A model generated the notes under the pieces. That model was given only the letters and a program-made list of their open reading frames with translations. It was not told where the DNA came from and did no database searches. A DNA stretch of 53,470 nucleotides, from positions 1 to 53,470 of IMG/VR virus record IMGVR_UViG_3300023301_000001. The stretch is one strand, 5' to 3'. Source of the DNA: a virus (Duplodnaviria > Caudoviricetes). Positions 3,823 through 21,639 of the stretch are shown piece after piece (position 1 is the first letter of the stretch; each line of letters begins with the position of its first letter). The translations under genes were made by a program, and so were the position numbers.

Positions 3823-4944
3823 ATGCTGGAAATGAGAACAAGCGAACGGCGCGACCTCAAGACCTGCCCACAGCGGTGGTACTGGTCTCAGGTGGAAGGT
3901 CTCCGACCTCTCCGAGCCGCCAACCCGCTCTGGTTCGGGAGCGCGGTCCATGAGGGCCTCGCGGGGTGGTACATCCCCGGGACCAAGCGAGGAACGCACC
4001 CATCCGAGACCTTTGACAAGTACCTCGCCGGGAACCGCCGCATGCTCGTCACGAATGATGATGAGGAGACCGAGTACCAGGACGCGCGAGCGCTTGGGAT
4101 TGACATGCTTGACCGTTACGTGGAGCGTTGGGGCGAGGAGCCCGAGCGCGACGTCATCGCCTCTGAAAGGGAGTTCCAAGTGGTCCTCCCGAGGCCCGAG
4201 ATGGTCTTGTTCGGGAGGCATCGGCCCGCCGAGCGCCGCTGGCTCCGCTATGTGGGGACCTGGGATGGAGTCCACCGAGATCTCATCACCGGAGAGATCC
4301 GACTGGCGGAGCACAAGACGGCTGCGAGCATATGGGCAGACCACCTTCCGCTTGATGACCAGGCTGGCTCATATTGGGCCGTCGCTTCCAAGGTCCTAGA
4401 GAAGCAAGGGGTGCTGAAGGCGGGCGAGGAGATCGCTGGTATTGAGTACAACTTCCTGCGCAAGGCGCTCGGCGACACGAGGCCGGTCAACGCCGACGGG
4501 CTCCGGACTAACAAGCCGACCAAGACCGACTTTGTGGAGGCCATCGACAAGCACGGCGTTGAGGAGTTGCCCGGGCCGCTCGCGAAGTTGAAGGTGGTTG
4601 ACCTTGAGGCGCTCGCGGAGGAACTCGGGCTGACCGTATTTGGAGAGCCGAGCGCGCTCCAGCCACCGGCTTACTTTGAGCGTTTCATGGTCTACCGCTC
4701 GCGAGCCGAGCGCGGGCAGATGATCCGCCGCATCCAGGATGAGGCCGTGTTCGCCGAGGCTTACCGGAAGGGATGGCTGCCTGTTGTCAAGGCTCCAGAC
4801 CTACAGAAGTGCCGGGGTTGCCAATTCCGCCGAATGTGCGAGTTGGATGAGTCCGGCGACGCGCTCGCGGTGGAGGAGTTCAAGGAGATCCAGTTCACCA
4901 AAACAGACCCATACGCGGCGCACAGGAAGGATGTGAAGAAGTGA
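3823..4944 (+). CDS. Cas4/RecB-like PD-(D/E)xK exonuclease
   Basis: N-terminal CPQRWYW, GSAVH, GTWD...EHKT nuclease motif, C-terminal CxxC-x5-C Fe-S ligands. Confidence 0.85.
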   Translation: MLEMRTSERRDLKTCPQRWYWSQVEGLRPLRAANPLWFGSAVHEGLAGWYIPGTKRGTHPSETFDKYLAGNRRMLVTNDDEETEYQDARALGIDMLDRYVERWGEEPERDVIASEREFQVVLPRPEMVLFGRHRPAERRWLRYVGTWDGVHRDLITGEIRLAEHKTAASIWADHLPLDDQAGSYWAVASKVLEKQGVLKAGEEIAGIEYNFLRKALGDTRPVNADGLRTNKPTKTDFVEAIDKHGVEELPGPLAKLKVVDLEALAEELGLTVFGEPSALQPPAYFERFMVYRSRAERGQMIRRIQDEAVFAEAYRKGWLPVVKAPDLQKCRGCQFRRMCELDESGDALAVEEFKEIQFTKTDPYAAHRKDVKK

Positions 4945-5123: not shown

Positions 5124-5959
5124 TGGCAGTACCAGAACAGATTGGTAGCATTGGCCAAAACGCCAACTACATGCATATGCTGATCGTCGGCGACTCGGGA
5201 TTTGGCAAGACGGTATTTGCCGGCACCGCGCAGAATGCGCTATTCCTGACGACAGACCCGGAAGGAACTACATCAGCGATGATGATGGGGTCGACCGCGA
5301 AGGAATGGAAGATTGGGCATTGGCGCGAACTCAACGAGGCATTCCGATACCTCCGCGACGGCGGCATTGAGGAGATGGGCCTGGAGTGGCTGATCATCGA
5401 CAACATCTCTGCGGCTCAGAACTTCGGGATGGAGGCGACGATGGAATTGGCAAGGGAGAACAACTCCAAACTTGATGAGTTCATCTCCTCTCAGCAGGAT
5501 TATCTCCGGAGCCAGAACATGCTCCGCCAGATGGTCAAGACCTTCCAAGACCTTCCGGTCAATATCATTTGGACCTCATGGCAAGCGGTCCAAGAGAATC
5601 CGGACACCGGCGAGATCTACTTTGCGCCCGCTATTCACGGGCAGAAGGGCTCGCTGGCGCAGGAAGTCGCAGGGTACATGAACGTGGTCGGCTACGGCGA
5701 GGTGGTGAAGGACACCAAAGGCAACGAGGTCCGCCGCATTTGGTTCACGTTCAACGACGCATTCCGGGGCAAGGATCGCTTTGTCTGCCTCGGCGCATAC
5801 CAGGACAGGCTAACGGTTCCGAAGATGCACCGAATGGTTGAGGAAGCGAAGAAGGCCGCCATGTCCAGCAAGAAGGGATCCACCGGCGCCAAGGCCGGTA
5901 GGCCCGCAGTCAAGAAGGCTCCGGCAACACGCCGGACCGCTACAAGGAAGAAGGCATAA
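5123..5959 (+). CDS. AAA-family P-loop ATPase (Sak4/RecA-like recombinase)
   Basis: GDSGFGKT Walker A, LIIDN Walker B, GKDR motif; located between nuclease and SSB. Confidence 0.85.
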   Translation: MAVPEQIGSIGQNANYMHMLIVGDSGFGKTVFAGTAQNALFLTTDPEGTTSAMMMGSTAKEWKIGHWRELNEAFRYLRDGGIEEMGLEWLIIDNISAAQNFGMEATMELARENNSKLDEFISSQQDYLRSQNMLRQMVKTFQDLPVNIIWTSWQAVQENPDTGEIYFAPAIHGQKGSLAQEVAGYMNVVGYGEVVKDTKGNEVRRIWFTFNDAFRGKDRFVCLGAYQDRLTVPKMHRMVEEAKKAAMSSKKGSTGAKAGRPAVKKAPATRRTATRKKA

Positions 5960-6909
5960 TGCCCAGCATCAAGAGGTCCAACGTCAAGGCCGAAGAAGTC
6001 AAGACTGGCTTTGAGGCGTATGACGGTCCTACTCCGACCAAGCGTGGGATGTACCGCGCGATCATCAAGCAGTTCAACTTCAAGGAGTTCCGCTCCGGCC
6101 GCACCGGCTTCTCCATCCTCGTGGAGTTGGAAGCGGCGGCGGGAGATCCGCACAACCACGAGCAGTTTGACGGCTTCCCGATCTGGAGCAACATCGTGTT
6201 CGGCGAGGAGGAAGCGCTCATGGCGCGGGAGTCCAACTTGTACGCCGCACTCGGCGCTGGCGACGGGCCGACGATCACCCATGATGAAGGCAACCCCACG
6301 ACCGGCGTGAAGGTCAAGAAGGTCGGCGGCAAGGACCCGATTGACAAGGCCGTATCGGTCGACATCAAGCAAGGCAAGTATGAGGGTGAAGTCCGGCCCG
6401 AGGTCGACGGCATCTACAAGATCGCCGGAGCCGCCTCTGCCGGGAAGGCGAAGGCAACCGCCGACGCTCCCGAGCCCGAAGAGGAGGACACAGCCGAAGA
6501 TGCCGGAGCCCGCGAGCGCGAGTTGAAGGCGCTCAAGGTCTCTGATCTCCGCGAGATCGCCGATGAACTCGGTCTGGAGACCGACGGCGTGAAGAAGGCC
6601 GACCTGATCAGCAGCATCCTTGAGGAGGAGTTTGGCGCCGAGTTTGCCGAGCCCTCCGAGGATGACGAGGATGAGGAGGATGAGGACGAGGAGGACGAGG
6701 AGGAAGATGACGAGGAGGATGAGGAAGATGACGAGGAGGATGAAGAGGCAGAACGCCGCGCCGACCTCGCCGGAGTCTCTCGCATCGAACTCAAGAAGGT
6801 CCTGAAGGAACTGGACCCTGACGCGAAGGTTCTGAAGAAGATGACCGATGAGGACATCGTGGACGCGATCATCGCCGAGGAATTTGAGAGCGATGAGCCT
6901 CCCTTCTAA
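5959..6909 (+). CDS. Single-stranded DNA-binding protein (DUF669-like) with HeH/Rho-N-like helical domains and acidic tract
   Basis: OB-fold-like N-terminus; LKVSDLREIADELGL...KKADLISSIL; long D/E run; ends DEPPF like actinobacterial SSB. Confidence 0.75.
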   Translation: MPSIKRSNVKAEEVKTGFEAYDGPTPTKRGMYRAIIKQFNFKEFRSGRTGFSILVELEAAAGDPHNHEQFDGFPIWSNIVFGEEEALMARESNLYAALGAGDGPTITHDEGNPTTGVKVKKVGGKDPIDKAVSVDIKQGKYEGEVRPEVDGIYKIAGAASAGKAKATADAPEPEEEDTAEDAGARERELKALKVSDLREIADELGLETDGVKKADLISSILEEEFGAEFAEPSEDDEDEEDEDEEDEEEDDEEDEEDDEEDEEAERRADLAGVSRIELKKVLKELDPDAKVLKKMTDEDIVDAIIAEEFESDEPPF

Positions 6910-11255: not shown

Positions 11256-11550
11256 TTTGCCGTACACCTCGCTGGTCAAGCCCAAGCGCCTCGCGCTCCG
11301 CCATGATCTCACCGGAGTGATGCCAGATCCGAGCCCAAAAGCACGCAAGCCGGTCGCGGCTCGCGGGCCGCTCCGCGCAGAGATCTATGTGTGGGTCTCG
11401 GGCTGGATGGTGCAGGCGTTCCCGGCTGGCTTCCCGATTGAGACCGCGTATGTCGGGCACTCCAACGCGCTTCTCTCGGGCCGGTACTTTGACCGGGCCG
11501 TGTACCGTGCGGTGATCGACATGCTACGTGACGAGGAGGCATCATGCTGA
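11248..11550 (+). CDS. Hypothetical protein (MPDLPY...)
   Basis: AAGGAGG upstream; fills operon gap. Confidence 0.6.
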   Translation: MPDLPYTSLVKPKRLALRHDLTGVMPDPSPKARKPVAARGPLRAEIYVWVSGWMVQAFPAGFPIETAYVGHSNALLSGRYFDRAVYRAVIDMLRDEEASC

Positions 11551-12074
11551 CCTGGATGACGCGGGCATCGTTCCTTGACTCCGCTCGGGATCTTGATGAT
11601 GACCTTCTGACGCTCACGGCACAGCAGTCGGCTCGGCTCCTTGACGCGATGACGGGCGGCGAGCCGCTCCCGAAGTCGACGCCGCTGGAGTCGATGTGGG
11701 CCAGTTATGAGGTCGGGCTTGCCGGTTATTCGCTCGCGCTCATGGCCGAGGCCGGGCTGCGCGGCATCGTCATCTTCCAGAGCCGCGACGTGCTCCAGAT
11801 TGCCGAGGAACTCGGCGGAGAGTTCGTGAGGCCGCCATGGGTTGATGACACCGCCGTGCTACGCTCACACCGGAGTAACGCTGTGCGCCGCTGGCCCGGA
11901 AAGTACAAGAAGGTCTGGGGTCCCAAGACTCCGAAGGCATGGCCGTACCTGTGGCCGATTGTCGATGATGAAGGAGGCTATGAGATCCGCCTGTCAAAGC
12001 ATGACAAGGGTCTCCTCAAGTCGGGCGCGAGGAGTTTGCCCGACGATGTTTTGGAAAGGATCGCCAGCCAATGA
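11544..12074 (+). CDS. Pyrimidine-dimer glycosylase / MSMEG_6728-like protein (divergent)
   Basis: F.DSARDLD, MW..YE..L..Y, RG, PPWV, SHRSN, PYLWP pattern. Confidence 0.65.
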   Translation: MLTWMTRASFLDSARDLDDDLLTLTAQQSARLLDAMTGGEPLPKSTPLESMWASYEVGLAGYSLALMAEAGLRGIVIFQSRDVLQIAEELGGEFVRPPWVDDTAVLRSHRSNAVRRWPGKYKKVWGPKTPKAWPYLWPIVDDEGGYEIRLSKHDKGLLKSGARSLPDDVLERIASQ

Positions 12075-12850
12075 ATGTATCAATCCTGGGGTGTGGACCG
12101 GCTGGAATGTTTGCCGCTCACGCCGCCTCGGAAGCAGGTCATGACGTCGTGATCTACAGCAAGCCGAGGAAGTCGAACATGCGCGGCGCTCAGTACCTTC
12201 ACCGGCCCATCCCGGGGCTGTCGGGCTCGCCATTCCTCATCGACTACCGGCTGACCGGCGAGGTCGCAGGATACCGGGAGAAGGTCTATGGGAACATGCT
12301 TGACATTGAGGTCTCGCCGGAGATGATTCTGGGAATACGGGAGGCATGGGACATCCGCGAGGCTTACGATGCCGCATGGCGCTTGTACTCCGACCTCATC
12401 ACCCCGTGGGATGCCTTGGAGGACCACTCCTATGCAGAGTTGGAGAACATCATCCTTGACTCAGACCTCGTCATCTCGACTGTGCCTGCTCACCTCCTTT
12501 GCGAGAGCGAGGAGCACGTGTTTGACTCGGAGGTGATTTGGGCCACGGATCTCGTCAAGCCGACCAACATCCCGGGCTCCGAGGACAACGTGGTGATCTG
12601 CTCCGGCGATGAACGCGACTGGTGGTACAGGGTCTCCAGAATCCAGGGCTGGGAGAACACCGAATATCCTCAAGACCGGAAGCCGCCGAGCGGCGTGTGG
12701 CAGATCTGGGAAGTGGAGAAGCCGATCAGCACGACGTGCGTTTGTCACCCGCAAATTCTGCGCCAAGGCCGGTACGGGAGATGGACAAAGGGAGTTCTGT
12801 CAGATGAGTCCTATTATGCTGTGAGAGAGGAATTACCAGATGCCAAATAG
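12071..12850 (+). CDS. FAD-dependent oxidoreductase (Rossmann fold)
   Basis: ILGCGPAGMFAA dinucleotide-binding motif, GAQYLH, ISTVP, C-terminal GRYGRW. Confidence 0.8.
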   Translation: MNVSILGCGPAGMFAAHAASEAGHDVVIYSKPRKSNMRGAQYLHRPIPGLSGSPFLIDYRLTGEVAGYREKVYGNMLDIEVSPEMILGIREAWDIREAYDAAWRLYSDLITPWDALEDHSYAELENIILDSDLVISTVPAHLLCESEEHVFDSEVIWATDLVKPTNIPGSEDNVVICSGDERDWWYRVSRIQGWENTEYPQDRKPPSGVWQIWEVEKPISTTCVCHPQILRQGRYGRWTKGVLSDESYYAVREELPDAK

Positions 12851-13478
12851 CATCCGCGTTCACCCGCTCGCTCCCGTGGTCGCTCTCGACATTGACGGGA
12901 CGCTGGGCGACTACTATGATCACTTCCGATGGTTTGCCGAATTGTACAAGCAGGAGCCGGTCGCGATTGACTGGGAGATCTCGGATGAATTCTCCGAGGC
13001 TCTCCAGATGGGCAAAGAGGAATACCGTGACATCAAACTCGCTTACCGCCAAGGCGGGATGAAGCGGAGCCTGCCCCTGCTTGACAACTTTGTTGAGCAC
13101 CTCGTGCCGGCAATTCGTGGCGGCTTTGGATTCCAAGTTTGGATCTGTACCACGAGGCCCTGGCAAAGGCTAGACAACATCGACCCAGACACGCAATTCT
13201 GGATCAACAAGAACCTCGGGAAGGTCGATGGCGTCATTTACGGTGAGGACAAGTACCTTGACCTGATTGACATCGTCGGGCTTGACCGAATAGTCGGCGT
13301 GTTTGATGACCTCCCGGAGAATATTGAAAGGGCCAACGCGCTCGGTCTCCGGGCTCGGCTCCGCGATGGCGGACACAACCGGCGCGGCGACCATGCCGCG
13401 CTCCTGAGAGTAGACAACAGCAGAGACATGATGGCACTGATTCGCCATTGGTCGACTGAGAAGAAGTCAGAAGCATGA
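12840..13478 (+). CDS. HAD-superfamily phosphatase / 5'-nucleotidase-like protein
   Basis: LDIDGT motif I, CTTR motif II, K, FDD motif IV. Confidence 0.85.
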   Translation: MPNSIRVHPLAPVVALDIDGTLGDYYDHFRWFAELYKQEPVAIDWEISDEFSEALQMGKEEYRDIKLAYRQGGMKRSLPLLDNFVEHLVPAIRGGFGFQVWICTTRPWQRLDNIDPDTQFWINKNLGKVDGVIYGEDKYLDLIDIVGLDRIVGVFDDLPENIERANALGLRARLRDGGHNRRGDHAALLRVDNSRDMMALIRHWSTEKKSEA

Positions 13479-14965
13479 GTGGCCAGGTAACTCGGAGAGA
13501 GCGAGCCATTCGCACAATACCCTTCCCGCGACTGGTGGAGACCGTGAAGGAGTTGGAGGACTTGTCCAATTACACGGTTATTCGCGATTCAATGCATAAG
13601 ATTCTTCAAGCCTGTGATGAGGCTCCCGGCACTCGACTTTGGGAGCAAATGGGAGATCCAAGGCGTTTCCATTCTGCATCCGTAACGCTCCCCGCCGTTA
13701 TTCTTTCAATCAATGCTGCGGAGTTGAGCGCTCACTATCAAGATGACGCCGTGACGCTGTATCACAGCGATTGCCTTGATGCGCTGCGTAATCTTCCTGA
13801 CAACTCGGTCCACGCCATCGTCACCGATCCGCCGTATGGGTTGGCAAACACAGATCCGGTACACGTCACAAAAACGTTGCTCAAGTGGAGCAACGGCGAG
13901 CGCGACTACATACCGGGCGGTGCCGGATTTATGGGAAAGGCATGGGACTCTTTTGTGCCTCCGGTTGCTGTGTGGGATGAGTGTCTGCGGGTGCTGAAAC
14001 CGGGCGGGCACCTACTGGCATTCGCAGGATCTCGGACTCACGACCTCATGGGGCTCAGCATCCGCATGGCAGGCTTTGAGATCCGCGACTCAATCGCGTG
14101 GCTGTATGGGTCTGGCTTCCCGAAATCCTTGGATGTGTCCAAGGCGATTGACAAGGCGGCAGGGGCGATGCGGGGTGTCGTGGGCTCCAAGTTGGGGCAG
14201 CCCGGATACTCACTAGCCCCAAGCACGGGGGAAAATCTCTACGCGGGATCATTCGGTGGCACTGGCGACCCAGAGAAGGAGTCGCAGATCACGGCCCCGT
14301 CAACCCCCGACGCCGTCACCTGGCAGGGCTGGGGGACGGCACTCAAGCCCGCCCATGAGCCCATCGTCGTCGGACGTAAGCCATTTGCGGGAACTGTCGC
14401 CGCCAACGTCCTTGCACACGGGACCGGAGGAATCAACGTGGACGGGTGCCGGGTGCAGTATGTGAACGATGCCGACCGCGAGCAGACCCGCGTGCCAGAG
14501 CCAATTCAGCACAACGATGCGCGTGGCGTCTATCAGGCTGGCAATGGAGTCGGGCGCACTGGCTCTATCTTTGAGCCTGCCACCGCTGGCCGCTGGCCTC
14601 CGAATGTGGTCCTGGACGGCTCACAAGCAGACACGCTCGATGACATGACAAAAGGCCAGGGCGGCGCATCCCGGTTCTTCCCCGTGTTCCGTTACGGGCC
14701 CAAAGCGCCAAAGAGCGAGCGACCAGAGGTTGACGGCGTGAAACACCCAACCGTCAAACCTCTGGACCTCATGCGCTGGCTCGTGCGACTCGTCACGCCG
14801 CCTGGCGGGACTGTGCTGGACCCATTCGCCGGAAGCGGGACGACGGCAGAGGCGTGCGTCATCGAAGGCTTCAAGTGCATCGTCATCGAACGTGAAGCCG
14901 AATATCTGCCTTTGATCGTGCAACGAATTACAAAGCCATCATTACAAACAAGGAGAGAAACATGA
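13475..14965 (+). CDS. Amino-DNA methyltransferase (N6-A/N4-C, beta class) with ~85-aa N-terminal extension
   Basis: VTDPPY catalytic motif precedes HPTVKP and DPFAGSGTT SAM-binding motif. Confidence 0.92.
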   Translation: MSGQVTRRERAIRTIPFPRLVETVKELEDLSNYTVIRDSMHKILQACDEAPGTRLWEQMGDPRRFHSASVTLPAVILSINAAELSAHYQDDAVTLYHSDCLDALRNLPDNSVHAIVTDPPYGLANTDPVHVTKTLLKWSNGERDYIPGGAGFMGKAWDSFVPPVAVWDECLRVLKPGGHLLAFAGSRTHDLMGLSIRMAGFEIRDSIAWLYGSGFPKSLDVSKAIDKAAGAMRGVVGSKLGQPGYSLAPSTGENLYAGSFGGTGDPEKESQITAPSTPDAVTWQGWGTALKPAHEPIVVGRKPFAGTVAANVLAHGTGGINVDGCRVQYVNDADREQTRVPEPIQHNDARGVYQAGNGVGRTGSIFEPATAGRWPPNVVLDGSQADTLDDMTKGQGGASRFFPVFRYGPKAPKSERPEVDGVKHPTVKPLDLMRWLVRLVTPPGGTVLDPFAGSGTTAEACVIEGFKCIVIEREAEYLPLIVQRITKPSLQTRRET

Positions 14966-15180
14966 GTGACAAAGCGCCAAGCCCGATAATCCCCACCCAG
15001 CATTACGTCTCAGCAACCGGCGTTGTTACCGGGACGCCAGATGCGGTATTTGCGAAGTTGGAGGTCATCATCGCAGAGCGATTCCCTGGCAAGATGTTCC
15101 GCATCGTCGGGACTAACACCACCACTTTCAGAGACGGTAGGAACTGGACCGTGTCAGCCGTTATTGAGGAGCAAGCATGA
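14962..15180 (+). CDS. Hypothetical protein
   Basis: AAGGAG RBS, ATGA overlaps, AT-richer codons. Confidence 0.65.
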   Translation: MSDKAPSPIIPTQHYVSATGVVTGTPDAVFAKLEVIIAERFPGKMFRIVGTNTTTFRDGRNWTVSAVIEEQA

Positions 15181-15414
15181 ATGATTTGAAAGAGCAAGCA
15201 TACCGCCATGTTGCTTGGGTATTGGGGGATCATGTGAACGGGTATCAACCGGGCGGATTTACTACCGCATTGCTTAGTGCTTGGGAGCGCGCCGACCCAC
15301 AGAACAATGCCAAATTGTGCCAGGCATTCCCTGAACTTGGTGAAGCAATTTCAATCGCCAAGTCTTACGGAACCGCCACGCTGGTTAAGATACTCAAGGA
15401 GCAAGCATGAATGA
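15167..15414 (+). repeat. Perfect 18-bp direct repeat AGGAGCAAGCATGAATGA (15167-15184 and 15397-15414)
   Basis: Read directly from the sequence. Confidence 0.9.
15177..15410 (+). CDS. Hypothetical protein flanked by 18-bp direct repeats
   Basis: GGAG RBS, ATGA overlaps; GGFTTALLSAWERAD. Confidence 0.7.
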   Translation: MNDLKEQAYRHVAWVLGDHVNGYQPGGFTTALLSAWERADPQNNAKLCQAFPELGEAISIAKSYGTATLVKILKEQA

Positions 15415-16429
15415 CAAGTACACGCCGAGCCGCGATGCCGGTGACCTCCGCCAGACCAACCTCCTGCGGGATGTAGCGTTCAACCGCCAGTCGATGAACG
15501 ATGGGCACCACGTGAGCCCGCTAGACAACGGGAAGGTCAACGTGGGAGCCGACGGCATCAACGTCCGGCTTGTCCAGCCCATCCAAGAGGAGATGTTCAA
15601 GCGGGTCATGTCGATGGCTACCCGGGCGACAATCGGGCTGGACCTTGAGGAGCGTCCGGGCTACATCGACCCGCTCGCGGAGGCGGACTCCGAGGACTGG
15701 GAGGAGATGCTCAAGGGAGGTCTCCAAACAGTCCTTGAGACCCAGACGATCATCTTTGCGGTCTCGGGAGTTTCAAGGACTTGCACGCATCAGTTAGTCC
15801 GGAGCCGCAAGGCCGCATTCCATCAGCAAAGTCAGCGCGCTTCCTACTACGGCGACAGGCCGGAAGTCCGCATGCCCGAGTCAATCTGGCTCAATCCGCG
15901 AGCGCGAGCCGCTTACATGAAGGCTGTAGAAGCGTCGCATGAGGCGTACCGGATCGCGACCGCAGAGGACATCTCATACCAGGATGCCCGGTTCATCCTC
16001 CCGGAAGGAACTGACAACTACATCCTCCTGGAGTACAGCGTGCGCGAGTTCATGAACGTGTATGCCTATCGCGGCTGCTCCATGTTCTCTTGGGAGATCG
16101 TGCACGTGATGCGGGAGTGCCGCCGACTCCTCATTGAGGCCCACCCGTGGCTCGCTCCCTATGTCAAGATCTCATGCCAGGACGGGCCTTGCCCTAACTG
16201 CCTCGGGACCGGCGCTGAAGAAGGCTATGTGGTTCAGAACTTCTCTGGGGATGAGGTTCGCAACGTTCCTACGGCTCGCTGTGAGAAGTGCGCAGGCACC
16301 GGCATGGTCGGCTCGCGGTGTACCTTCCAAGGATGGGAGACCGTGGAGGGACAATGCGAGTTCCCATGGGCCAAGGAGGAGAACCGGACATTCAAGCCTT
16401 TGCATCACAAGATTGAGCGGAAGCAATAG
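15407..16429 (+). CDS. thyX: ThyX-like flavin-dependent thymidylate synthase (variant motif) with C-terminal Cys-rich Zn-finger insert
   Basis: VSRTCTHQLVRSR-x7-SQR (canonical RHR-x7-SxR), QDARFILP, WEI; CPNCLGTG...CEKCAGTG. Confidence 0.8.
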   Translation: MNDKYTPSRDAGDLRQTNLLRDVAFNRQSMNDGHHVSPLDNGKVNVGADGINVRLVQPIQEEMFKRVMSMATRATIGLDLEERPGYIDPLAEADSEDWEEMLKGGLQTVLETQTIIFAVSGVSRTCTHQLVRSRKAAFHQQSQRASYYGDRPEVRMPESIWLNPRARAAYMKAVEASHEAYRIATAEDISYQDARFILPEGTDNYILLEYSVREFMNVYAYRGCSMFSWEIVHVMRECRRLLIEAHPWLAPYVKISCQDGPCPNCLGTGAEEGYVVQNFSGDEVRNVPTARCEKCAGTGMVGSRCTFQGWETVEGQCEFPWAKEENRTFKPLHHKIERKQ

Positions 16430-17037
16430 TGGATGTCGGGCGCTTGTTCGGGAAGGAGCCGCCCCGTGAGGAAATGACATCGCTCCGCGCGATTGTCGAT
16501 GACTTCCGGTGGCGGTTCCCGAGAGAGAAGCGGGACATGGTTGTGGTGTACTGCGAGGAGGCCGCGACGCTCCGCCAGGCCATCAAGCGGGCATGCGCCT
16601 CGCGAGCCGCGAACGGGAAGATGTCCAACCATCAGTCGCGAGTTCCGGAAGCGGTCCGCCAGACGTTCAAGCGGGCTCTGCTGGATGTCGTTGACGAGAT
16701 CGCGAGCGCGCCGGACTTTGATGCGCTTCACGAGATCGCCGACCGGGTGAAGCCTCCGGGCATCGGGCCGGTCACGCTGTATGACGTGTCAACCCGCATC
16801 GCCGCTCGGCTGGCGCTAGAGCCAACGTCCCTATACCTCCACGCGGGAGTGGCCCAGGGCCTCCGAGCGTTGGAGAGGGCCACAGGGAGCGCCGCGCGTG
16901 CCACGGACGGCATCATTCTCGCGGTCGACCTCCACGACGTATGGCCCGAGTTCGCGAGCCTCACGCCGGATGAGACTGAGGACCTGATTTGCACCTATCG
17001 GGAAGTGTTCCCGAGACTTGGAGAGGAACCAGAATGA
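16429..17037 (+). CDS. Helix-hairpin-helix protein, possibly aGPT-pyrophosphorylase / amino acid:DNA transferase-like
   Basis: GIGPVTLYDVSTRI (HhH), LYLHAG, C-terminal ETEDLIC (E-x-x-hydrophobic-C). Confidence 0.5.
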   Translation: MDVGRLFGKEPPREEMTSLRAIVDDFRWRFPREKRDMVVVYCEEAATLRQAIKRACASRAANGKMSNHQSRVPEAVRQTFKRALLDVVDEIASAPDFDALHEIADRVKPPGIGPVTLYDVSTRIAARLALEPTSLYLHAGVAQGLRALERATGSAARATDGIILAVDLHDVWPEFASLTPDETEDLICTYREVFPRLGEEPE

Positions 17038-17543
17038 CTATGAACCTACAAGAAGCAATCAAGGCAGCGGTGCCACACGTCAACAAAAGCGACACGGTAC
17101 CTGCGATAATCGGGCTCAAGATCGCAGGTGGCATTCTCTACGCGACCGACCGCTACACTGCAGTCCGGATTGAGGTGCCGGGTGTCGATGACGCTTGGGT
17201 TCCTTTAGGTGTGGCAAAGCAAGGCGTTGTGTCAATTTCTGACAACGCAGCAACGCTGAAGACGGGCGCGACGATGAACCTCCCGGCGCAGGAGGAGTGG
17301 CCCGACTATCCGAACATCGAGCGCCTGTTTGAAGGGTTCAAGCCTTGGAACACAAGTAGCCCAGACCCGCTCGCGTTTGGTCTGAACCCGGCCATGTTTG
17401 AGAAGTTCCTGCCCAGGCACTTCCCGCGTGACGCAGTCTCGGTGAAGGTTGAAATTGGTGAAACGCTAACCAAGCCGCTACGGATCACGCTCCCGGGATT
17501 CCCGGAGTTTGTGGCTCTGTGGGTCCCTATGATCATATCATGA
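17034..17543 (+). CDS. Truncated DNA polymerase III beta-clamp-like protein
   Basis: LYATDRY, YPNIERL, GLNP, KPLRI...VPM motifs typical of DnaN-like domains; only 169 aa. Confidence 0.6.
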   Translation: MTMNLQEAIKAAVPHVNKSDTVPAIIGLKIAGGILYATDRYTAVRIEVPGVDDAWVPLGVAKQGVVSISDNAATLKTGATMNLPAQEEWPDYPNIERLFEGFKPWNTSSPDPLAFGLNPAMFEKFLPRHFPRDAVSVKVEIGETLTKPLRITLPGFPEFVALWVPMIIS

Positions 17544-17680
17544 GTGACATGACTGACTGGCCTCAAGAATGCACCTGCAAAAGCGAGCCCATAAACCCAT
17601 CCGGACGCTGGATCAACTACTCATGCCCGATTCACGGTGGCCGCGAGGCCGTCACAACGGTAATCAAGGAGGACTCATGA
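17540..17680 (+). CDS. Small Cys/His protein, 46 aa (CTC...CPIH); not in the ORF track
   Basis: ATGA overlaps at both ends; Zn-ligand-like motif. Confidence 0.6.
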   Translation: MSDMTDWPQECTCKSEPINPSGRWINYSCPIHGGREAVTTVIKEDS

Positions 17681-18030
17681 AGATCAGCGTCAACACTCAA
17701 GGCAAGGGCGAACTCATCATCACCCCGGAGGAGAGCGACTCCGAGGAACTCGCCGGAATCATCCGGCAAGACTTCCCGATATGGCTGGCGGCGTTTGCCG
17801 CGAAGAATGCCGAATATCAAGATGGCATCGGGACCGCCTTCACGCTCGGCGAGCGCGGTCAATTCTCGGACATCTACCGGAAGGTGATGAAACTCAAAGT
17901 GGCTCTCTGGGACGGTCACGAGGAGCGGCTCACGTCAGAGGGCGTGGTTGAGATCCTCCGGGATCTCGTGGGCCACCTATTCCTCGCGCTGTACATGCGC
18001 CGGACTCGGAACCACAGCAAGCCGCTCTGA
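17677..18030 (+). CDS. Nucleotide modification-associated domain 1 (DUF1599 / MazG-like) protein
   Basis: KNAEY...LG.RG...I..K..KL...E...EILRDL.GH pattern; AAGGAGG RBS. Confidence 0.65.
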   Translation: MKISVNTQGKGELIITPEESDSEELAGIIRQDFPIWLAAFAAKNAEYQDGIGTAFTLGERGQFSDIYRKVMKLKVALWDGHEERLTSEGVVEILRDLVGHLFLALYMRRTRNHSKPL

Positions 18031-18437
18031 TGGAGTACACATTCACCGATGCGATTGGTAAGAAGTATCACACGCCGCCAGGGCGCAAAGAGACTCCTGT
18101 GGAAATTAGGATATGGCCAAATGTGGACAAGTCCGCTCCGGCTCCTTCTGATAAGCCCTATCTTGGAAACTGCTGGGTGTGGACCGGCATCGTCAATCCT
18201 CAGCATGGTTATGTTTCCGTTTGGTACAAGAAGAAATATTGGAGGCTACATAGACTTGTGTATCACCTTATAAACGGGCCGATTGCAAAAGGGATGGTCA
18301 TCGGGCATAAATGCAACGTCAAGCATTGCTGTAGGCCTGAGCACCTTGAGGAAGTTACACAAGGGCAGAATACAAGAGACGCAATCAAAGATGGCTTGCG
18401 CAAGGCTGGCCTTTATTCTAAGGAGGTGATGTCATGA
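18030..18437 (+). CDS. Free-standing HNH homing endonuclease
   Basis: CWVWTG, GY, HRLVY, HKCNVKHCCRPEHL...N; markedly AT-rich. Confidence 0.9.
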   Translation: MEYTFTDAIGKKYHTPPGRKETPVEIRIWPNVDKSAPAPSDKPYLGNCWVWTGIVNPQHGYVSVWYKKKYWRLHRLVYHLINGPIAKGMVIGHKCNVKHCCRPEHLEEVTQGQNTRDAIKDGLRKAGLYSKEVMS

Positions 18438-19390
18438 CTCGGTCAATGGATTACGTTTCAATTCACAGCCACTCAACTTACAGTTACATGGATGGATATG
18501 GTTTACCAGAAGCGCACGTCCAGCGAATTGTCGATTTAGGAATGTCGGCGCTCGCATTGACCGAGCATTGACATGGCAATGTCAGTTCTCACGTCAAGTT
18601 GGAGCAGGCCGCGCAAGCCCACGGGATCAAGCCGCTGTTTGGTGTGGAGGCGTACACCGCGCCGGAGGATATGCGCGAGACCAAGAACCAGCGGAAGTGG
18701 CACCTGACCATCCTCGCGATGGACGGCGAAGGCTACCAGAACCTCATGAAGATGGTGACGAGATCCTGGGATGAGGACTTCTACCGATGGCCAACGATTC
18801 TGGGGTCCAACCTCAAGGAGAACAACGCCGGGCTCATCGTCGCGAGCGGCTGCTCAGACTCCCATTTGGCATGCTCGCTCCTCGGAGGGAAGGGCATTGA
18901 GGTCGGCGACTACCGCGCCGCAGTGAAGGTGCTGAAGCGGTACAAACGGCTGCTTGGGGATCGCTACTATTTGGAGGTGCAGCGCTTCCCGAAGTTGGAG
19001 CGCACGAGGATCTTGAACCGGCAATATGCGGCCTGGTCAAAGGAGTTCGGCATCCCATTGGTCGTGACCTCGGATGTCCACTACCCGTTCCCGGAACAGA
19101 ATGAGATGCAGAAAATCCTACACGCTGCGGGACGCGGCACGGGAACGGTCGCGGCGGCGGAAGCCGAATGGGAGTATGACATCCTCATGACCTACCCACA
19201 ATCAGACGCCGAGGTGTTGGAGGACTTAATCAAGACGGGCCTCAAGAAGTCAGAAGCCCAAGGAGCCATCGCGAGCACCGCCGAGATCGCCGAGCGCTGC
19301 ACGGTAACGCTCCCGAAGATGGACCGCATCCGCTACCCAGGAACAAGAAGGGATCTGGCACCATGGCCCGCAAAAAGAAGAAGCGCCTGA
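18434..19390 (+). CDS. dnaE: DnaE-like DNA polymerase III alpha, N-terminal PHP part, with in-frame TGA at 18569-18571
   Basis: SIHSHSTYSYMDG...ALTEH*HGN...FGVEAY...HLTILA...SGC...TSDVHY, all in one frame from ATG 18434. Confidence 0.85.
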
Positions 19391-21639
19391 GCGACCCTCT
19401 GGATGCTCCGGTCGACAGCATCGAACTCCTCTGGGAGTGGTGCCGACTTGGATGGAAGTATCGCGGGCTGAACTCGCTCCCGAGAGCCAAGCGGAAGGAG
19501 TACGGCGAGCGCGTCAAGTATGAGATGGATCTGATCATCAGCAAGGACTTTGTCGACTACTTCCTGGTGCTCTCCGACGTGGTGCGAGCAGCGAAGGATC
19601 GCGGCGTTGCTGTGGGACCTGCCCGAGGCTCTGCCGCAGCATCTCTGGTTTGCTACCTGACGCGCATCACCGAGGTCGACCCGCTCCAATTCCCGCTCAT
19701 GCTGTTTGAGCGTTTCATCGACCCCAACCGCCACGACCTCCCAGATGTCGACTTGGACTTTGAGGATGAGCGCCGGGATGAGGTGCGACAGATCATGGTC
19801 GACAAGTACGGCGATGACCGGGTGGGCAACATCGGGACCTTCACAAGGTATCGCGGCAAGAACGCCATCATTGACGTCGCGCGTGTCTTCAGCATCCCGC
19901 CATATGAGGTAGCGCGAGCCAAGGAGTTCATGCTGGAGCGCTCGGGAGGCGACTCCCGGTTTGACGCGAGCATCATGGATACCGTGGAGATGTTCCCAGA
20001 GGTCAAGGAAGTCTTTGACAAGTATCCGGACCTGTACAAGAGCATCGAACTGGAGGGCAACTACAAGGCGTTCGGAGTCCACGCCGCTGGCCTCGTGATT
20101 GGCGCCGAGCCGCTATGGAATTACGTGGCGACCTACTCCAAGAGCAACGTGGGCAAGAACCACAACACGGTCAAAGTCCTCTCAGTCGACAAGTTTGACG
20201 GCGAGCACCTCGGGCTCATGAAGTTGGACGCGCTCGGGCTCTCGACCATGGGCATGATCGCTCGCGCGCTCCGCATGGTCGGCATGACGCTGGATGACTT
20301 GTACGACATCCCGCTGGATGACGCCGAGACTCTCCAGGCATTCAACGACGGCGACGTCATCGGCATCTTTCAGTTTGAAGGCCGGACGATGAAGATGGTC
20401 TGTGAGGAGTTGAAGCCAGAGACCTTCATGGACCTCGCCGCTGTCAACGCGCTCGCGAGGCCGGGGCCATTCCATTCGGGCTCCACGGCGGAGTACATCG
20501 CCATTCGCCGAGGCCAGAAGGAGGCCGACGTGATCCACCCCATCGTGTCCAAGATCTGCGAGGCGACCGAAGGCCAAATCATCTACCAGGAGCAGATCCT
20601 GAAGATCACCCGCGATGTCGGGCAGTTCCCGTGGACGCACGCCGCCGCCATCCGCAAGATCATCTCGGCTCGGAAGGGCGAGAGCGCGTTCAACGCCATG
20701 TGGGATGAGTTCAAGGTCGGCGCGGCTTCCATCGATATTGACGAGCACACCGCGATGGAGATTTGGAAGCGGATGGCGACGGCAGGAACCTACGCATTCA
20801 ACATCGCGCACTGCGTCTCATACTCCATGCTTGGCTTCTGGGCGATGTGGCTCAAGGTCCACTATCCTCTGGAGTTCTATGCCGCCCAACTTCACAAAGC
20901 GGCGGATGAGGAGAAGAAGGTGGCCATCATGCGCGACATGCACTCAGAGAAGTTCGGGCGCACGTATGACGTCCTCCCTCCGGACCCGCAGGAGAGTAGC
21001 GAGACATGGGTGCCGGTCTCTGGAGGAGTCCGGGCCGGGTGGCTACAACTACCGGGTGTCGGTGAACTCCGAGCCGAGGACATCACCGCGCTCGCGACCT
21101 CGGGCGAACTAGAGACATGGGCCGACCTGGAGAAGGTCAAAGGGCTCGGAGTCAAGACCGTAGAGAAGGTGGAGGAGTTCTGCGGGCTCGCCGACCCATT
21201 CGGCATCAACGAGATCCGCGACCAGACTAACGCCATCAAGGCCGCCATCCGCTCGGGCGCTCTCCCGGGACTCCCGTACCCGCACAACGTATCTGATGAG
21301 ATTCCGTATGAGGCCAAGCGCTGGCGCGGAGTCCTCCTTGCGAGAATTCGTGACCTTGACCTCCACGACTTGTTTGAGGACCACCGCGCGCGAGTCGGTG
21401 AGGACTTGGACCCGGATACGATCAAGGACCCGCACCTGAAGGAGTCGCTCAACGTGTACTCGGAGGATGTCGCCGGGCGGCTGACCATCAAGTTGTCGCG
21501 CTATGACTACCAGAGGTTCATGGCCGATATTTGGGACGCCAAGACGGGCCATGACTACATCCTCGCCGACGTGTTCAAGTGGCCCAACTCGGGCAAGAAC
21601 GTCACCGCCCGCCGCATCTGGGTCATCGACCCTGACTGA
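19363..21639 (+). CDS. dnaE: DnaE-like DNA polymerase III alpha, catalytic part (-1 frame relative to the PHP part)
   Basis: FVDYFL, GPARGSAAASLVCY, FERF, PDVDLDF, HAAG, KLDALGL, GIFQFE, YQEQ, YAFNIAH. Confidence 0.95.
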   Translation: MARKKKKRLSDPLDAPVDSIELLWEWCRLGWKYRGLNSLPRAKRKEYGERVKYEMDLIISKDFVDYFLVLSDVVRAAKDRGVAVGPARGSAAASLVCYLTRITEVDPLQFPLMLFERFIDPNRHDLPDVDLDFEDERRDEVRQIMVDKYGDDRVGNIGTFTRYRGKNAIIDVARVFSIPPYEVARAKEFMLERSGGDSRFDASIMDTVEMFPEVKEVFDKYPDLYKSIELEGNYKAFGVHAAGLVIGAEPLWNYVATYSKSNVGKNHNTVKVLSVDKFDGEHLGLMKLDALGLSTMGMIARALRMVGMTLDDLYDIPLDDAETLQAFNDGDVIGIFQFEGRTMKMVCEELKPETFMDLAAVNALARPGPFHSGSTAEYIAIRRGQKEADVIHPIVSKICEATEGQIIYQEQILKITRDVGQFPWTHAAAIRKIISARKGESAFNAMWDEFKVGAASIDIDEHTAMEIWKRMATAGTYAFNIAHCVSYSMLGFWAMWLKVHYPLEFYAAQLHKAADEEKKVAIMRDMHSEKFGRTYDVLPPDPQESSETWVPVSGGVRAGWLQLPGVGELRAEDITALATSGELETWADLEKVKGLGVKTVEKVEEFCGLADPFGINEIRDQTNAIKAAIRSGALPGLPYPHNVSDEIPYEAKRWRGVLLARIRDLDLHDLFEDHRARVGEDLDPDTIKDPHLKESLNVYSEDVAGRLTIKLSRYDYQRFMADIWDAKTGHDYILADVFKWPNSGKNVTARRIWVIDPD

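Follow-up and report, generated by a model that had tools for sequence, protein, structure and literature searches.

Two layers in the gene run upstream of a split DnaE polymerase in an actinophage-like virus: a conserved module, probably for nucleotide supply, and an insert with a candidate pyrimidine-modifying enzyme

The genes upstream of the DNA polymerase in the virus record IMGVR_UViG_3300023301_000001 raise the question of whether they act together on the bases of DNA or serve the supply of nucleotides. The window analysed here is the whole of that record, 53,470 bp, and represents a whole virus genome (direct terminal repeats; completeness 100%). The run in question (11544–18030) includes genes for a T4-endonuclease-V-like (endoV-like) protein, a flavin adenine dinucleotide (FAD) flavoprotein, a HAD phosphatase, a ThyX-like protein, a helix–hairpin–helix (HhH) protein and a DUF1599/Nmad1-like protein. 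A first-pass annotation had proposed that these six genes form an uncharacterised base-modification pathway, with dNTP supply plus repair as the alternative. The reading that we favour, at a probability a little short of even, is an operon of two layers. One layer would be a conserved core for replication-linked nucleotide supply; the other would be an insert carrying real DNA-modification genes, among them an HhH enzyme that acts on a pyrimidine via Cys188. For the core taken by itself, nucleotide supply is the most likely function, and supply plus repair is there the likelier of the two original proposals.

Our calls of open reading frames (ORFs) placed all six genes on the + strand where they had been reported, and checks of the ORFs by hidden Markov models (HMMs), structure and alignment upheld the identities given to them. 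The proposed translational coupling was borne out as well: successive genes between 11544 and 17543 overlap by 4, 11, 4, 4, 4, 4, 1 and 4 nt. A gap of 133 nt lies between 17543 and the start of the last gene at 17677. Promoter-like matches (5 in the region versus 4.0 expected from shuffles) and terminator-like matches (8 versus 7.8) were at chance level. The run does not lie directly upstream of DnaE, as had been stated; an HNH endonuclease gene (18030–18437) intervenes, and the polymerase is itself divided between two genes, one for PHP and one for the core.

To see which of the genes are kept together, we compared the run with 29 related loci, of which 25 were IMG/VR loci fetched via the flavoprotein and four came from GenBank (BLASTP, E ≤ 1e-4). 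These loci are partly non-independent: L003 and L012 go with phage Krampus, and L009, L010 and L023 resemble one another. Homologues of the endoV-like protein were present in 22 loci, of the HAD protein in 24, of the domain of the last gene in 22 and of the ThyX-like protein, within the flanks, in 10. The DNA methyltransferase, the 72- and 77-residue ORFs, the HhH protein, the clamp-like protein and the HNH endonuclease of the window had homologues in 0/29. In the closest relatives (L006 and L021) the Nmad1-like gene comes immediately after the HAD gene and is itself followed by DnaE. Relative to them, the ≈ 4.1 kb between the HAD and Nmad1-like genes of the window (13475–17543) is therefore an insert. 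The methyltransferase and clamp genes had been taken for later inserts; both do lie in the inserted block, but so, relative to the closest relatives, do the ThyX and HhH genes.

A search for related loci with the DnaE protein by itself gave 2 loci and was repeated with a 14-protein alignment against IMG/VR. This search kept 80 of 326 stretches, and 46 records of at least 45 kb, some of which overlap the flavoprotein-based sets, were examined for each gene. Of these records, 45/46 had the flavoprotein and 45/46 had ThyX, and both were in 34/34 of those at least 90% complete. HAD was found in 36/46 (28/34 of the near-complete records), the domain of the last gene in 24/46 (18/34), the endoV-like protein in 20/46 (14/34) and HhH in 4/46 (3/34). 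The earlier flavoprotein-bearing sets had ThyX in 5/5 and 10/11 records and the HhH gene in 0/16, and there was no homologue of HhH in 50,697 GenBank phage records. The six genes do not travel together, and the notion of one coherent pathway made up of all of them was not sustained.

This distribution bears most directly on a single pathway, in which the whole run would cooperate to replace or decorate thymidine. Here the product of a ThyX-like enzyme would be dUMP with a C5-methylene or hydroxymethyl group, canonical dTMP and dTTP would be removed by the HAD and Nmad1-like hydrolases, DnaE would incorporate the analogue, and the HhH transferase, perhaps with the flavoprotein, would finish the base on the polymer. 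The absence of the HhH gene from most holders of the remaining genes speaks against such a pathway, which we consider distinctly unlikely; other evidence on it, for and against, is given with the proteins concerned. Under the two-layer reading, layer 1 (11544–13478 and 17677–18030) would be a conserved, replication-linked nucleotide module, and layer 2 (13475–17543) an insert that brought an N6/N4 DNA methylase, the only ThyX of the phage and the HhH enzyme coupled to it.

The HhH protein of the insert (202 residues; 16429–17037, + strand) is, as judged from its sequence and modelled structure, a remote, compact relative of the amino acid:DNA transferases (AADTs). The first-pass annotation had suggested an aGPT-Pplase/AADT-like protein, and this assignment has gained support from several sides. 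When the structural model (predicted local distance difference test, pLDDT, 91.7) was compared with 48,161 chains using VIA, the best match was 8z2m_A, the 5-phosphomethyl-dU glycinyltransferase PaMx11 gp46 (Z 6.4, 170 aligned residues, root-mean-square deviation (rmsd) 4.5). The best match in BFVD was an AADT-domain protein of a Mycobacterium phage (probability 0.99, TMq 0.57, E 0.14). Features from the ESM Atlas placed the protein near ADDT, aGPT-Pplase3 and HMUDK_hel clusters with scores of 0.89–0.93, which we take as leads. Relatives of the protein matched the ADDT family below threshold, 5/42 in the aligned set (best E 0.0016) and 4/39 among further relatives (best 6.3e-05, 23.2 bits versus a cut-off of 26.2; profile positions ≈ 119–228). 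ADDT was the sole Pfam family matched by more than one member of the HhH family.

The catalytic residues of the AADTs allowed a more specific comparison. PaMx11 gp46 works through Glu243, Thr244 and Cys247 (PMC11472151), and M6 gp51 and ViI gp247 are inactivated when either the Cys or the Glu is mutated (PMC8989533). E243, T244 and C247, as well as K150, were invariant in 9/9 AADTs. Within the window family, 42/42 sequences kept G111, G113, V115, Y118, D119, Y136, H138, A139, G140, E184, D185 and C188, and the spacing of the Glu and Cys in E184-D185-x-x-C188 is the same as in gp46, with Asp185 in place of Thr244. The hairpin motif of the protein reads GIGPVT. A low-confidence hhalign alignment brought three motifs into collinear order (GIGPV/FGPWI, LYLHAGV/vFMFkDP and EVEDfLC/EVETvLC) and put V115 and D119 at the positions that in the FGPW helix of the AADTs are taken by Trp146, which clamps the base, and Lys150, which binds the co-substrate. 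Alignment of the family with gp46 alone gave 19 columns only and was rejected as a wrong match.

PaMx11 gp46 and M6 gp51 belong to aGPT-Pplase clade 2 (Pfam ADDT, PF18724); the aGPT-Pplase and Nmad domains were reportedly defined by Iyer et al. in 2013. The two enzymes have in common with the window protein a phage origin, a location near replication and nucleotide genes, and, towards the C-terminus, a Glu and a Cys at a distance of four residues (a predicted catalytic pair in the window protein); they may also share an HhH glycosylase-like fold of two bundles. They differ in size (≈ 290 residues versus 202), and the window genome carries ThyX in place of the usual AADT partners. By analogy, the HhH enzyme would flip a pyrimidine base out of the double helix, and the thiol-bearing Cys188 would add to C6 of that base, with Glu184 as acid/base; C5 would thereby be activated as in PaMx11 gp46. 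Substrate and co-substrate would differ from those of the known enzymes, as the glycine-binding Lys and Trp positions read Asp119 and Val115 and no kinase is encoded. What the analysis shows are gene identities, folds, conserved residues, synteny and co-occurrence; we infer these catalytic roles, like those of the other proteins of the run, and any DNA bases beyond methylated ones.

The same protein can be read as a glycosylase-like repair or DNA-binding factor, in a run that provides nothing beyond supply, repair and methylation. In that case the polymerase would be served by a repair set of the base-excision type, formed by the endoV-like protein and the HAD protein (the latter as a 3′-phosphatase), and the modified bases of the phage would be methylated ones only. 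We regard this as somewhat unlikely. HhH glycosylases use an Asp or a Lys after the hairpin. An invariant Glu-x-x-x-Cys at the place of the gp46 catalytic pair is not known to be a feature of theirs, and it counts against a glycosylase, as do the repeated matches to ADDT and to no other Pfam family.

A full profile search showed the HhH family to be large, with 2,748 representative clusters at E ≤ 0.001, 2,074 at 1e-10 and 307 at 1e-30. None of 84 word-indexed homologues carried a Pfam domain. Extended forms (420, 289 and 271 residues, among others) contained no informative extra Pfam domain, and a search for fused or longer forms found none, which is weak evidence. We fetched 20 loci that hold homologues and, after the near-copies L048, L049 and L053 had been dropped, scanned the ORFs of at least 110 residues within 3.3 kb in 17 of them. 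The neighbours were SNF2 helicases, DUF2786 and DUF6011 proteins, VapE-like primases, a PD-(D/E)XK nuclease and AAA_24 proteins. This company of replication and recombination genes is in favour of a repair factor. So is locus L038, where the neighbours include a short-chain reductase and a PNKP-type HAD protein (PNKP phosphatase domain, 3.7e-12). L038 is a 9-kb viral contig on which ThyX, the HhH homologue, the PNKP-type phosphatase, the short-chain dehydrogenase and DnaE are packed together (L038:1072-7781). A 'FabG-like reductase' is listed beside oxidoreductase, phosphatase and ThyX-like genes in the cultured clusters D, DV and EF (PMC11385102).

Among the partners was ThyX. It lay within 2.5 kb of the HhH homologue in 4/20 loci. 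When whole records were searched (18 records; the short contigs L038 and L045 were dropped), ThyX was present in 15, including 10/10 of those at least 90% complete, ThyA in 0/18, the flavoprotein in 13 and the domain of the last gene in six. Together with the 1-nt overlap of the ThyX and HhH genes in the window, these counts argue for a single pathway. However, three complete low-GC records have the HhH gene and a full-length ThyX but no flavoprotein, which argues against it. Since these flavoprotein-free complete records make up one low-GC group, the 10/10 link between ThyX and HhH comes down to about two lineages, one being the DnaE/flavoprotein group and the other the low-GC group, and this too weakens the case for a single pathway. 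In two complete records (G006 and G008, loci L035 and L037) the six-frame HhH matches each contain one TAG, which may be a gene end, a break or a site of read-through.

The ThyX-like protein (340 residues; 15407–16429, + strand) had been called a variant ThyX, and the name is apt. It matched Thy1 at 2.8e-29 (102.7 bits versus a cut-off of 24.8), over profile positions 42–191 only, and phrog_35637 at 4.6e-130, but at 80.5 bits it stayed under the cut-off of 87.9 for the NCBIfam equivalog TIGR02170. It was the sole Thy1 match and the sole thymidylate-synthase-type gene of the genome, in which a Pfam scan of ORFs and a six-frame search gave no match to the ThyA-type family PF00303. In ThyX of M. 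tuberculosis, Arg87, Arg95, Arg97, Ser105, Arg107 and Arg199 contact FAD and dUMP, and Tyr108 forms an aromatic lid over the uracil C5 and the flavin N5 (PMC6514825). We equated residues with these by motif position, through alignment to the solved Corynebacterium ThyX. An alignment of 16 ThyX-like sequences from phages showed R124, R132, R134, R144 and R195 to be invariant and S142 nearly so; the Arg, Ser and Arg residues by which the family holds FAD and dUMP are thus kept in the window protein.

In other respects the protein departs from the family. The RHR motif reads RSR (R132-S133-R134), and the middle His was replaced by Ser, Thr, Gln or Asn in 16/16 phage sequences. The position assigned to the lid Tyr is Ala (Ala145 in the window) in 10/10 sequences of its clade. 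There is, moreover, an N-terminal extension of ≈ 90 residues and a Cys-rich C-terminus. The two replacements favour a single pathway with a ThyX product other than dTMP; the intact dUMP-binding residues speak against it. Because the residues that contact dUMP and FAD are kept, ordinary dTMP synthesis is still possible, and the protein is most likely a working dUMP-binding flavoenzyme with dTMP as its product. It would then supply thymidylate from dUMP, and the change from Tyr to Ala in the lid leaves another product possible. Residues ≈ 258–335 hold two CxxCxGxG motifs resembling the zinc finger of DnaJ and a conserved Cys-rich tail (CTFQGWE...GQCxFPWA). This zinc-finger part is absent in L035, L039 and L050. 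A weak match to the NCBIfam anti-TRAP family (RtpA) had an E-value of 0.003.

The most constant member of the conserved layer, besides ThyX, is a compact FAD flavoprotein (259 residues; 12071–12850, + strand), which matched phrog_8720 at 7e-85 and is called 'oxidoreductase' in actinophage annotations. Pfam FAD Rossmann families matched at its N-terminus. Across 21 sequences the GxGPxG start is invariant, as are 43 columns in all. The AlphaFold2 model (pLDDT 92) has a two-domain FAD fold. Its best VIA match was the UDP-galactopyranose mutase 4dsg (Z 14.2, 250 aligned residues, rmsd 3.8); about 50 GR2 flavoenzymes followed at Z 10.9–12.7, 202 chains reached Z ≥ 8, and 471 Foldseek matches had E-values of ≤ 0.001. 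As in that mutase and other GR2 enzymes (PHBH, D-amino-acid oxidase, protoporphyrinogen oxidase), an FAD Rossmann domain is combined with a β-sheet substrate domain. Identity to these enzymes is 7–17%, no subfamily is ahead by more than 1.5 Z, and, as the protein has only 259 residues, their extra helical or substrate domains are missing. The flavoprotein would have a redox role and is inseparable from ThyX and DnaE in the clade; a reading as supply, repair and methylation only leaves it without a role, which is a point against that reading. PaMx11 pairs its transferase with a 286-residue FAD enzyme, a parallel that favours a single pathway. However, this FAD lyase (gp47) was not among the 50 VIA matches listed for the flavoprotein, and hhalign matched the two over the 31-residue Rossmann start only, which counts against the parallel. 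An hhalign comparison of the flavoprotein with ThyX gave no meaningful match. Cys144, Cys223 and Cys225 are invariant in the flavoprotein family (the last two as a CxC motif) and Cys8 and Cys177 nearly so; they could form a redox or metal site.

The HAD phosphatase (212 residues; 12840–13478, + strand) has a DxDxT motif whose residues D17, D19 and T21 are invariant in 18/18 aligned sequences. It may be either an NT5C-like dNMP nucleotidase or a polynucleotide-phosphatase-like enzyme. The window protein matched phrog_415 ('polynucleotide kinase') at 8e-12, a match that favours repair, and had no match to NT5C. Among its relatives, 14/18 matched the Pfam family Hydrolase and 5/18 matched NT5C (best 7.7e-05).

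The last gene of the run (117 residues; 17677–18030, + strand) encodes a helical protein. Language-model features and a predicted structure liken it to DUF1599 ('nucleotide modification associated domain 1'). Its start was revised, with the ribosome-binding site AAGGAGG. It matched phrog_10271 at 4.9e-16 and gave no Pfam or PDB sequence match. The ESM Atlas gave a feature score of 0.92 to a cluster in which 27% of members carry DUF1599, and the predicted structure matched DUF1599 clusters with TM scores of 0.61–0.64. The earlier label of an Nmad1-like protein is backed, as a lead only, by these features and this structure, and has no HMM support. In relatives the domain is part of a 120–460-residue protein directly upstream of DnaE. 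The HAD and Nmad1-like proteins would most likely trim the nucleotide pool. Phages that replace thymine have pool-cleaning enzymes, among which a dNMP-nucleotidase-like HAD protein and an Nmad1-like protein would fit; to that extent the pair also suits a single pathway.

Upstream of the flavoprotein gene, directly 5′ of it, lies the gene for the endoV-like (Pyr_excise/MSMEG_6728-like) protein (176 residues; 11544–12074, + strand). Its HMM matches were below cut-off: E 0.0091 and 16.8 bits, versus a cut-off of 23, for Pfam Pyr_excise, and 2.2e-12 for the NCBIfam MSMEG_6728 family. Pyr_excise was matched by 6/14 members of the family (best 2.6e-10), which supports a place in repair. However, the 14 sequences have no invariant column in residues 1–51, all invariants being found from W52 onward. 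The catalytic residues of T4 endonuclease V are in its N-terminal region, and a Glu has a catalytic role. The lack of invariant residues in the first 51 positions is thus a point against a repair enzyme of that type; the conserved N-terminal catalytic residues appear to have been lost, and the protein probably binds damaged DNA rather than cutting it. Searches of PDB sequences, with single sequences or profiles, gave nothing useful for the flavoprotein, HhH, HAD, endoV-like or Nmad1-like proteins.

The core can also be compared with cultured phages. Microbacterium phages Krampus and TinyMiny, Streptomyces phage Rooney, Mycobacterium phage Onyinye and Gordonia phage Xenia2 carry the set 'oxidoreductase–phosphatase–DnaE–ThyX-like', and the flavoprotein is present in 126 GenBank actinophage records. 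Order is the same as in the window, the proteins are 40–70% identical and the polymerase is split alike. In the cultured phages the ThyX gene is found either behind DnaE or immediately behind the flavoprotein gene; these phages have no HhH transferase-like gene and, at that place, no methyltransferase insert. The genome announcements, in the passages available, list the gene set only (PMC11385102, PMC7302621), and two actinophage notes on thymidine hypermodification concern, in theirs, other genes (PMC11955845, PMC12716707). In the literature searched, no paper links the oxidoreductase/phosphatase/ThyX set to DNA modification. Nor did any mention of unusual bases in the cultured relatives turn up there, which is a further point against a single pathway.

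Several results weigh against the two-layer reading that we favour. On the HhH protein, the gp46 match (Z 6.4) is below the VIA caution line of 8, and HhH glycosylases come close behind it (Z 5.9, 5.2, 5.1 and 5.0). They also stand at the top of the Foldseek list, and both observations favour a repair or DNA-binding factor. Foldseek against the PDB gave no match for the model at E ≤ 0.001 (E 0.74, probability 0.60). The window protein had no Pfam match at E ≤ 1, a six-frame search with ADDT had none at E ≤ 10, hhalign of the family against nine AADTs gave a probability of 0.5% (E 0.12), and a profile search of PDB sequences missed 8z2m. The known AADTs need 5-phosphomethyl-dU, which is made by a kinase (PMC8989533, PMC11472151). 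A 5-hydroxymethyluracil (5-hmU) DNA kinase was found neither in the 43 window ORFs (Pfam), nor by six-frame search of the genome, nor among the 100 neighbour ORFs of the 17 HhH-homologue loci, and this tells against a single pathway as well. The first-pass annotation had seen neither this kinase nor a ThyA-fold hydroxymethylase, and the Pfam and six-frame searches confirmed both absences for the window genome. A TET/JBP partner was likewise not found near the HhH gene or in the genome.

The core is open to similar objections. The link of the HAD protein to NT5C runs through the five relatives only, and the 'polynucleotide kinase' PHROG fits better. The DUF1599/Nmad1 HMM was matched neither by 18 family members (E ≤ 1) nor in a six-frame search of the genome (E ≤ 10), and the pool-hydrolase roles of the two proteins are guesses. 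ThyX alone is common in viruses of Pseudomonas, Xanthomonas and archaea, which are not among the genera with the flavoprotein. Moreover, the DnaE-clade control found no flavoprotein-free member, so that lineage and function are not separated; the DnaE–flavoprotein–ThyX trio was perhaps co-inherited rather than functionally tied, and its linkage may reflect shared descent alone.

One further proposal is a modified thymidine fed by ThyX and made independently of a kinase. ThyX, with its RSR motif and Ala lid, would release 5-hydroxymethyl or methylene dUMP, DnaE would incorporate it, and the Cys188/Glu184 enzyme would swap the C5 substituent for a cationic amine. The invariant Asp119, at the Lys position of the known enzymes, would bind this amine. 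We think such a route improbable. If it were true, the HhH family, with its 2,748 representative clusters, would be a fourth and large clade of thymidine-modifying transferases. The thymidine hypermodification systems characterised so far, as described in PMC8989533 and PMC11472151, all begin with a ThyA-type hydroxymethylase or with a TET/JBP dioxygenase and all include a step by a 5-hmU DNA kinase. The HhH family has the Glu/Cys pair and none of the usual partners, and it lies beside ThyX; it is large, has no Pfam name and is absent from cultured phages. An active HhH enzyme would open a new way into DNA hypermodification and would add a class of enzyme for DNA labelling. The trio of DnaE, flavoprotein and ThyX, constant in the complete records of the clade (34/34), has cultured carriers, and the whole phage group might hold an overlooked base.

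The inserted block begins with an N6-adenine/N4-cytosine DNA methyltransferase (496 residues; 13475–14965, + strand), which matched N6_N4_Mtase at 5.9e-27 and phrog_67 at 5e-84. The 221-position profile is spread over residues 112–482, so that ≈ 150 residues must be inserted within the domain; this insertion is possibly a target-recognition module. Two small ORFs of 72 and 77 residues follow (14962–15410, + strand). Neither has a Pfam match, and the second matched phrog_15317 at 5.9e-16. The block ends with a protein weakly resembling sliding clamps or processivity factors (169 residues; 17034–17543, + strand; phrog_947, 4.2e-05; no Pfam match). Its start was revised to 17034, where there is a ribosome-binding site GGAGAGG and an ATGA overlap. 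Outside the block, the HNH endonuclease gene (+ strand; HNH_3, 2.7e-13) between the Nmad1-like and PHP genes looks like a homing-endonuclease insertion. The GC content at third codon positions was low in the methyltransferase (0.65), the 77-residue ORF (0.50), the clamp-like gene (0.64) and the HNH gene (0.54), and native-like in the ThyX (0.76) and HhH (0.78) genes, with neighbours at 0.74–0.81. This spread suggests that parts of the inserted block differ in age.

Nearly all genes of the genome are on the + strand. Those for recombination and replication make up one half, and behind them come those for terminase, portal, capsid, tape measure, tail and lysis. The nearest named relatives are actinophages (Microbacterium phages Krampus and TinyMiny, Streptomyces phage Rooney, Mycobacterium phage Onyinye, and Gordonia and Arthrobacter phages), and the clade is a large group of DnaE-type, actinophage-like siphoviruses. 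GenBank phages held no near-identical DNA; a search for the nearest DNA gave a 43-nt match in the methyltransferase gene only. One public sequencing run, its probable source, is listed as holding the window DNA, and no RNA run is listed.

The polymerase downstream of the run is encoded by two genes on the + strand, one for the PHP domain (18446–19390; PHP, 2.1e-21) and one for the polymerase core (19363–21639; DNA_pol3_alpha, 3.3e-66). The PHP gene starts at 18446 and not at 18599, and the PHP proteins of relatives (tblastn) cover 18446–19366 in one frame. The split into two genes is likewise annotated in Krampus and Onyinye and has been noted before (PMC7302621). The PHP and core genes overlap by 28 nt (19363–19390) in different frames. 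Just after the HSHS metal-site motif, the PHP gene contains an in-frame TGA (18572–18574), which stems from a 6-nt insertion relative to L021; the letters are the same in an independent Logan contig (depth 60) of one public run, the probable source. Far upstream, after a Sak4-like (AAA_24) gene, a 316-residue protein (5959–6909) has a Rho_N/SAP DNA-binding motif at residues 188–223. Its gene belongs to a recombination module that also comprises an SNF2 helicase (1007–2947) and a PD-(D/E)XK exonuclease (3823–4944).

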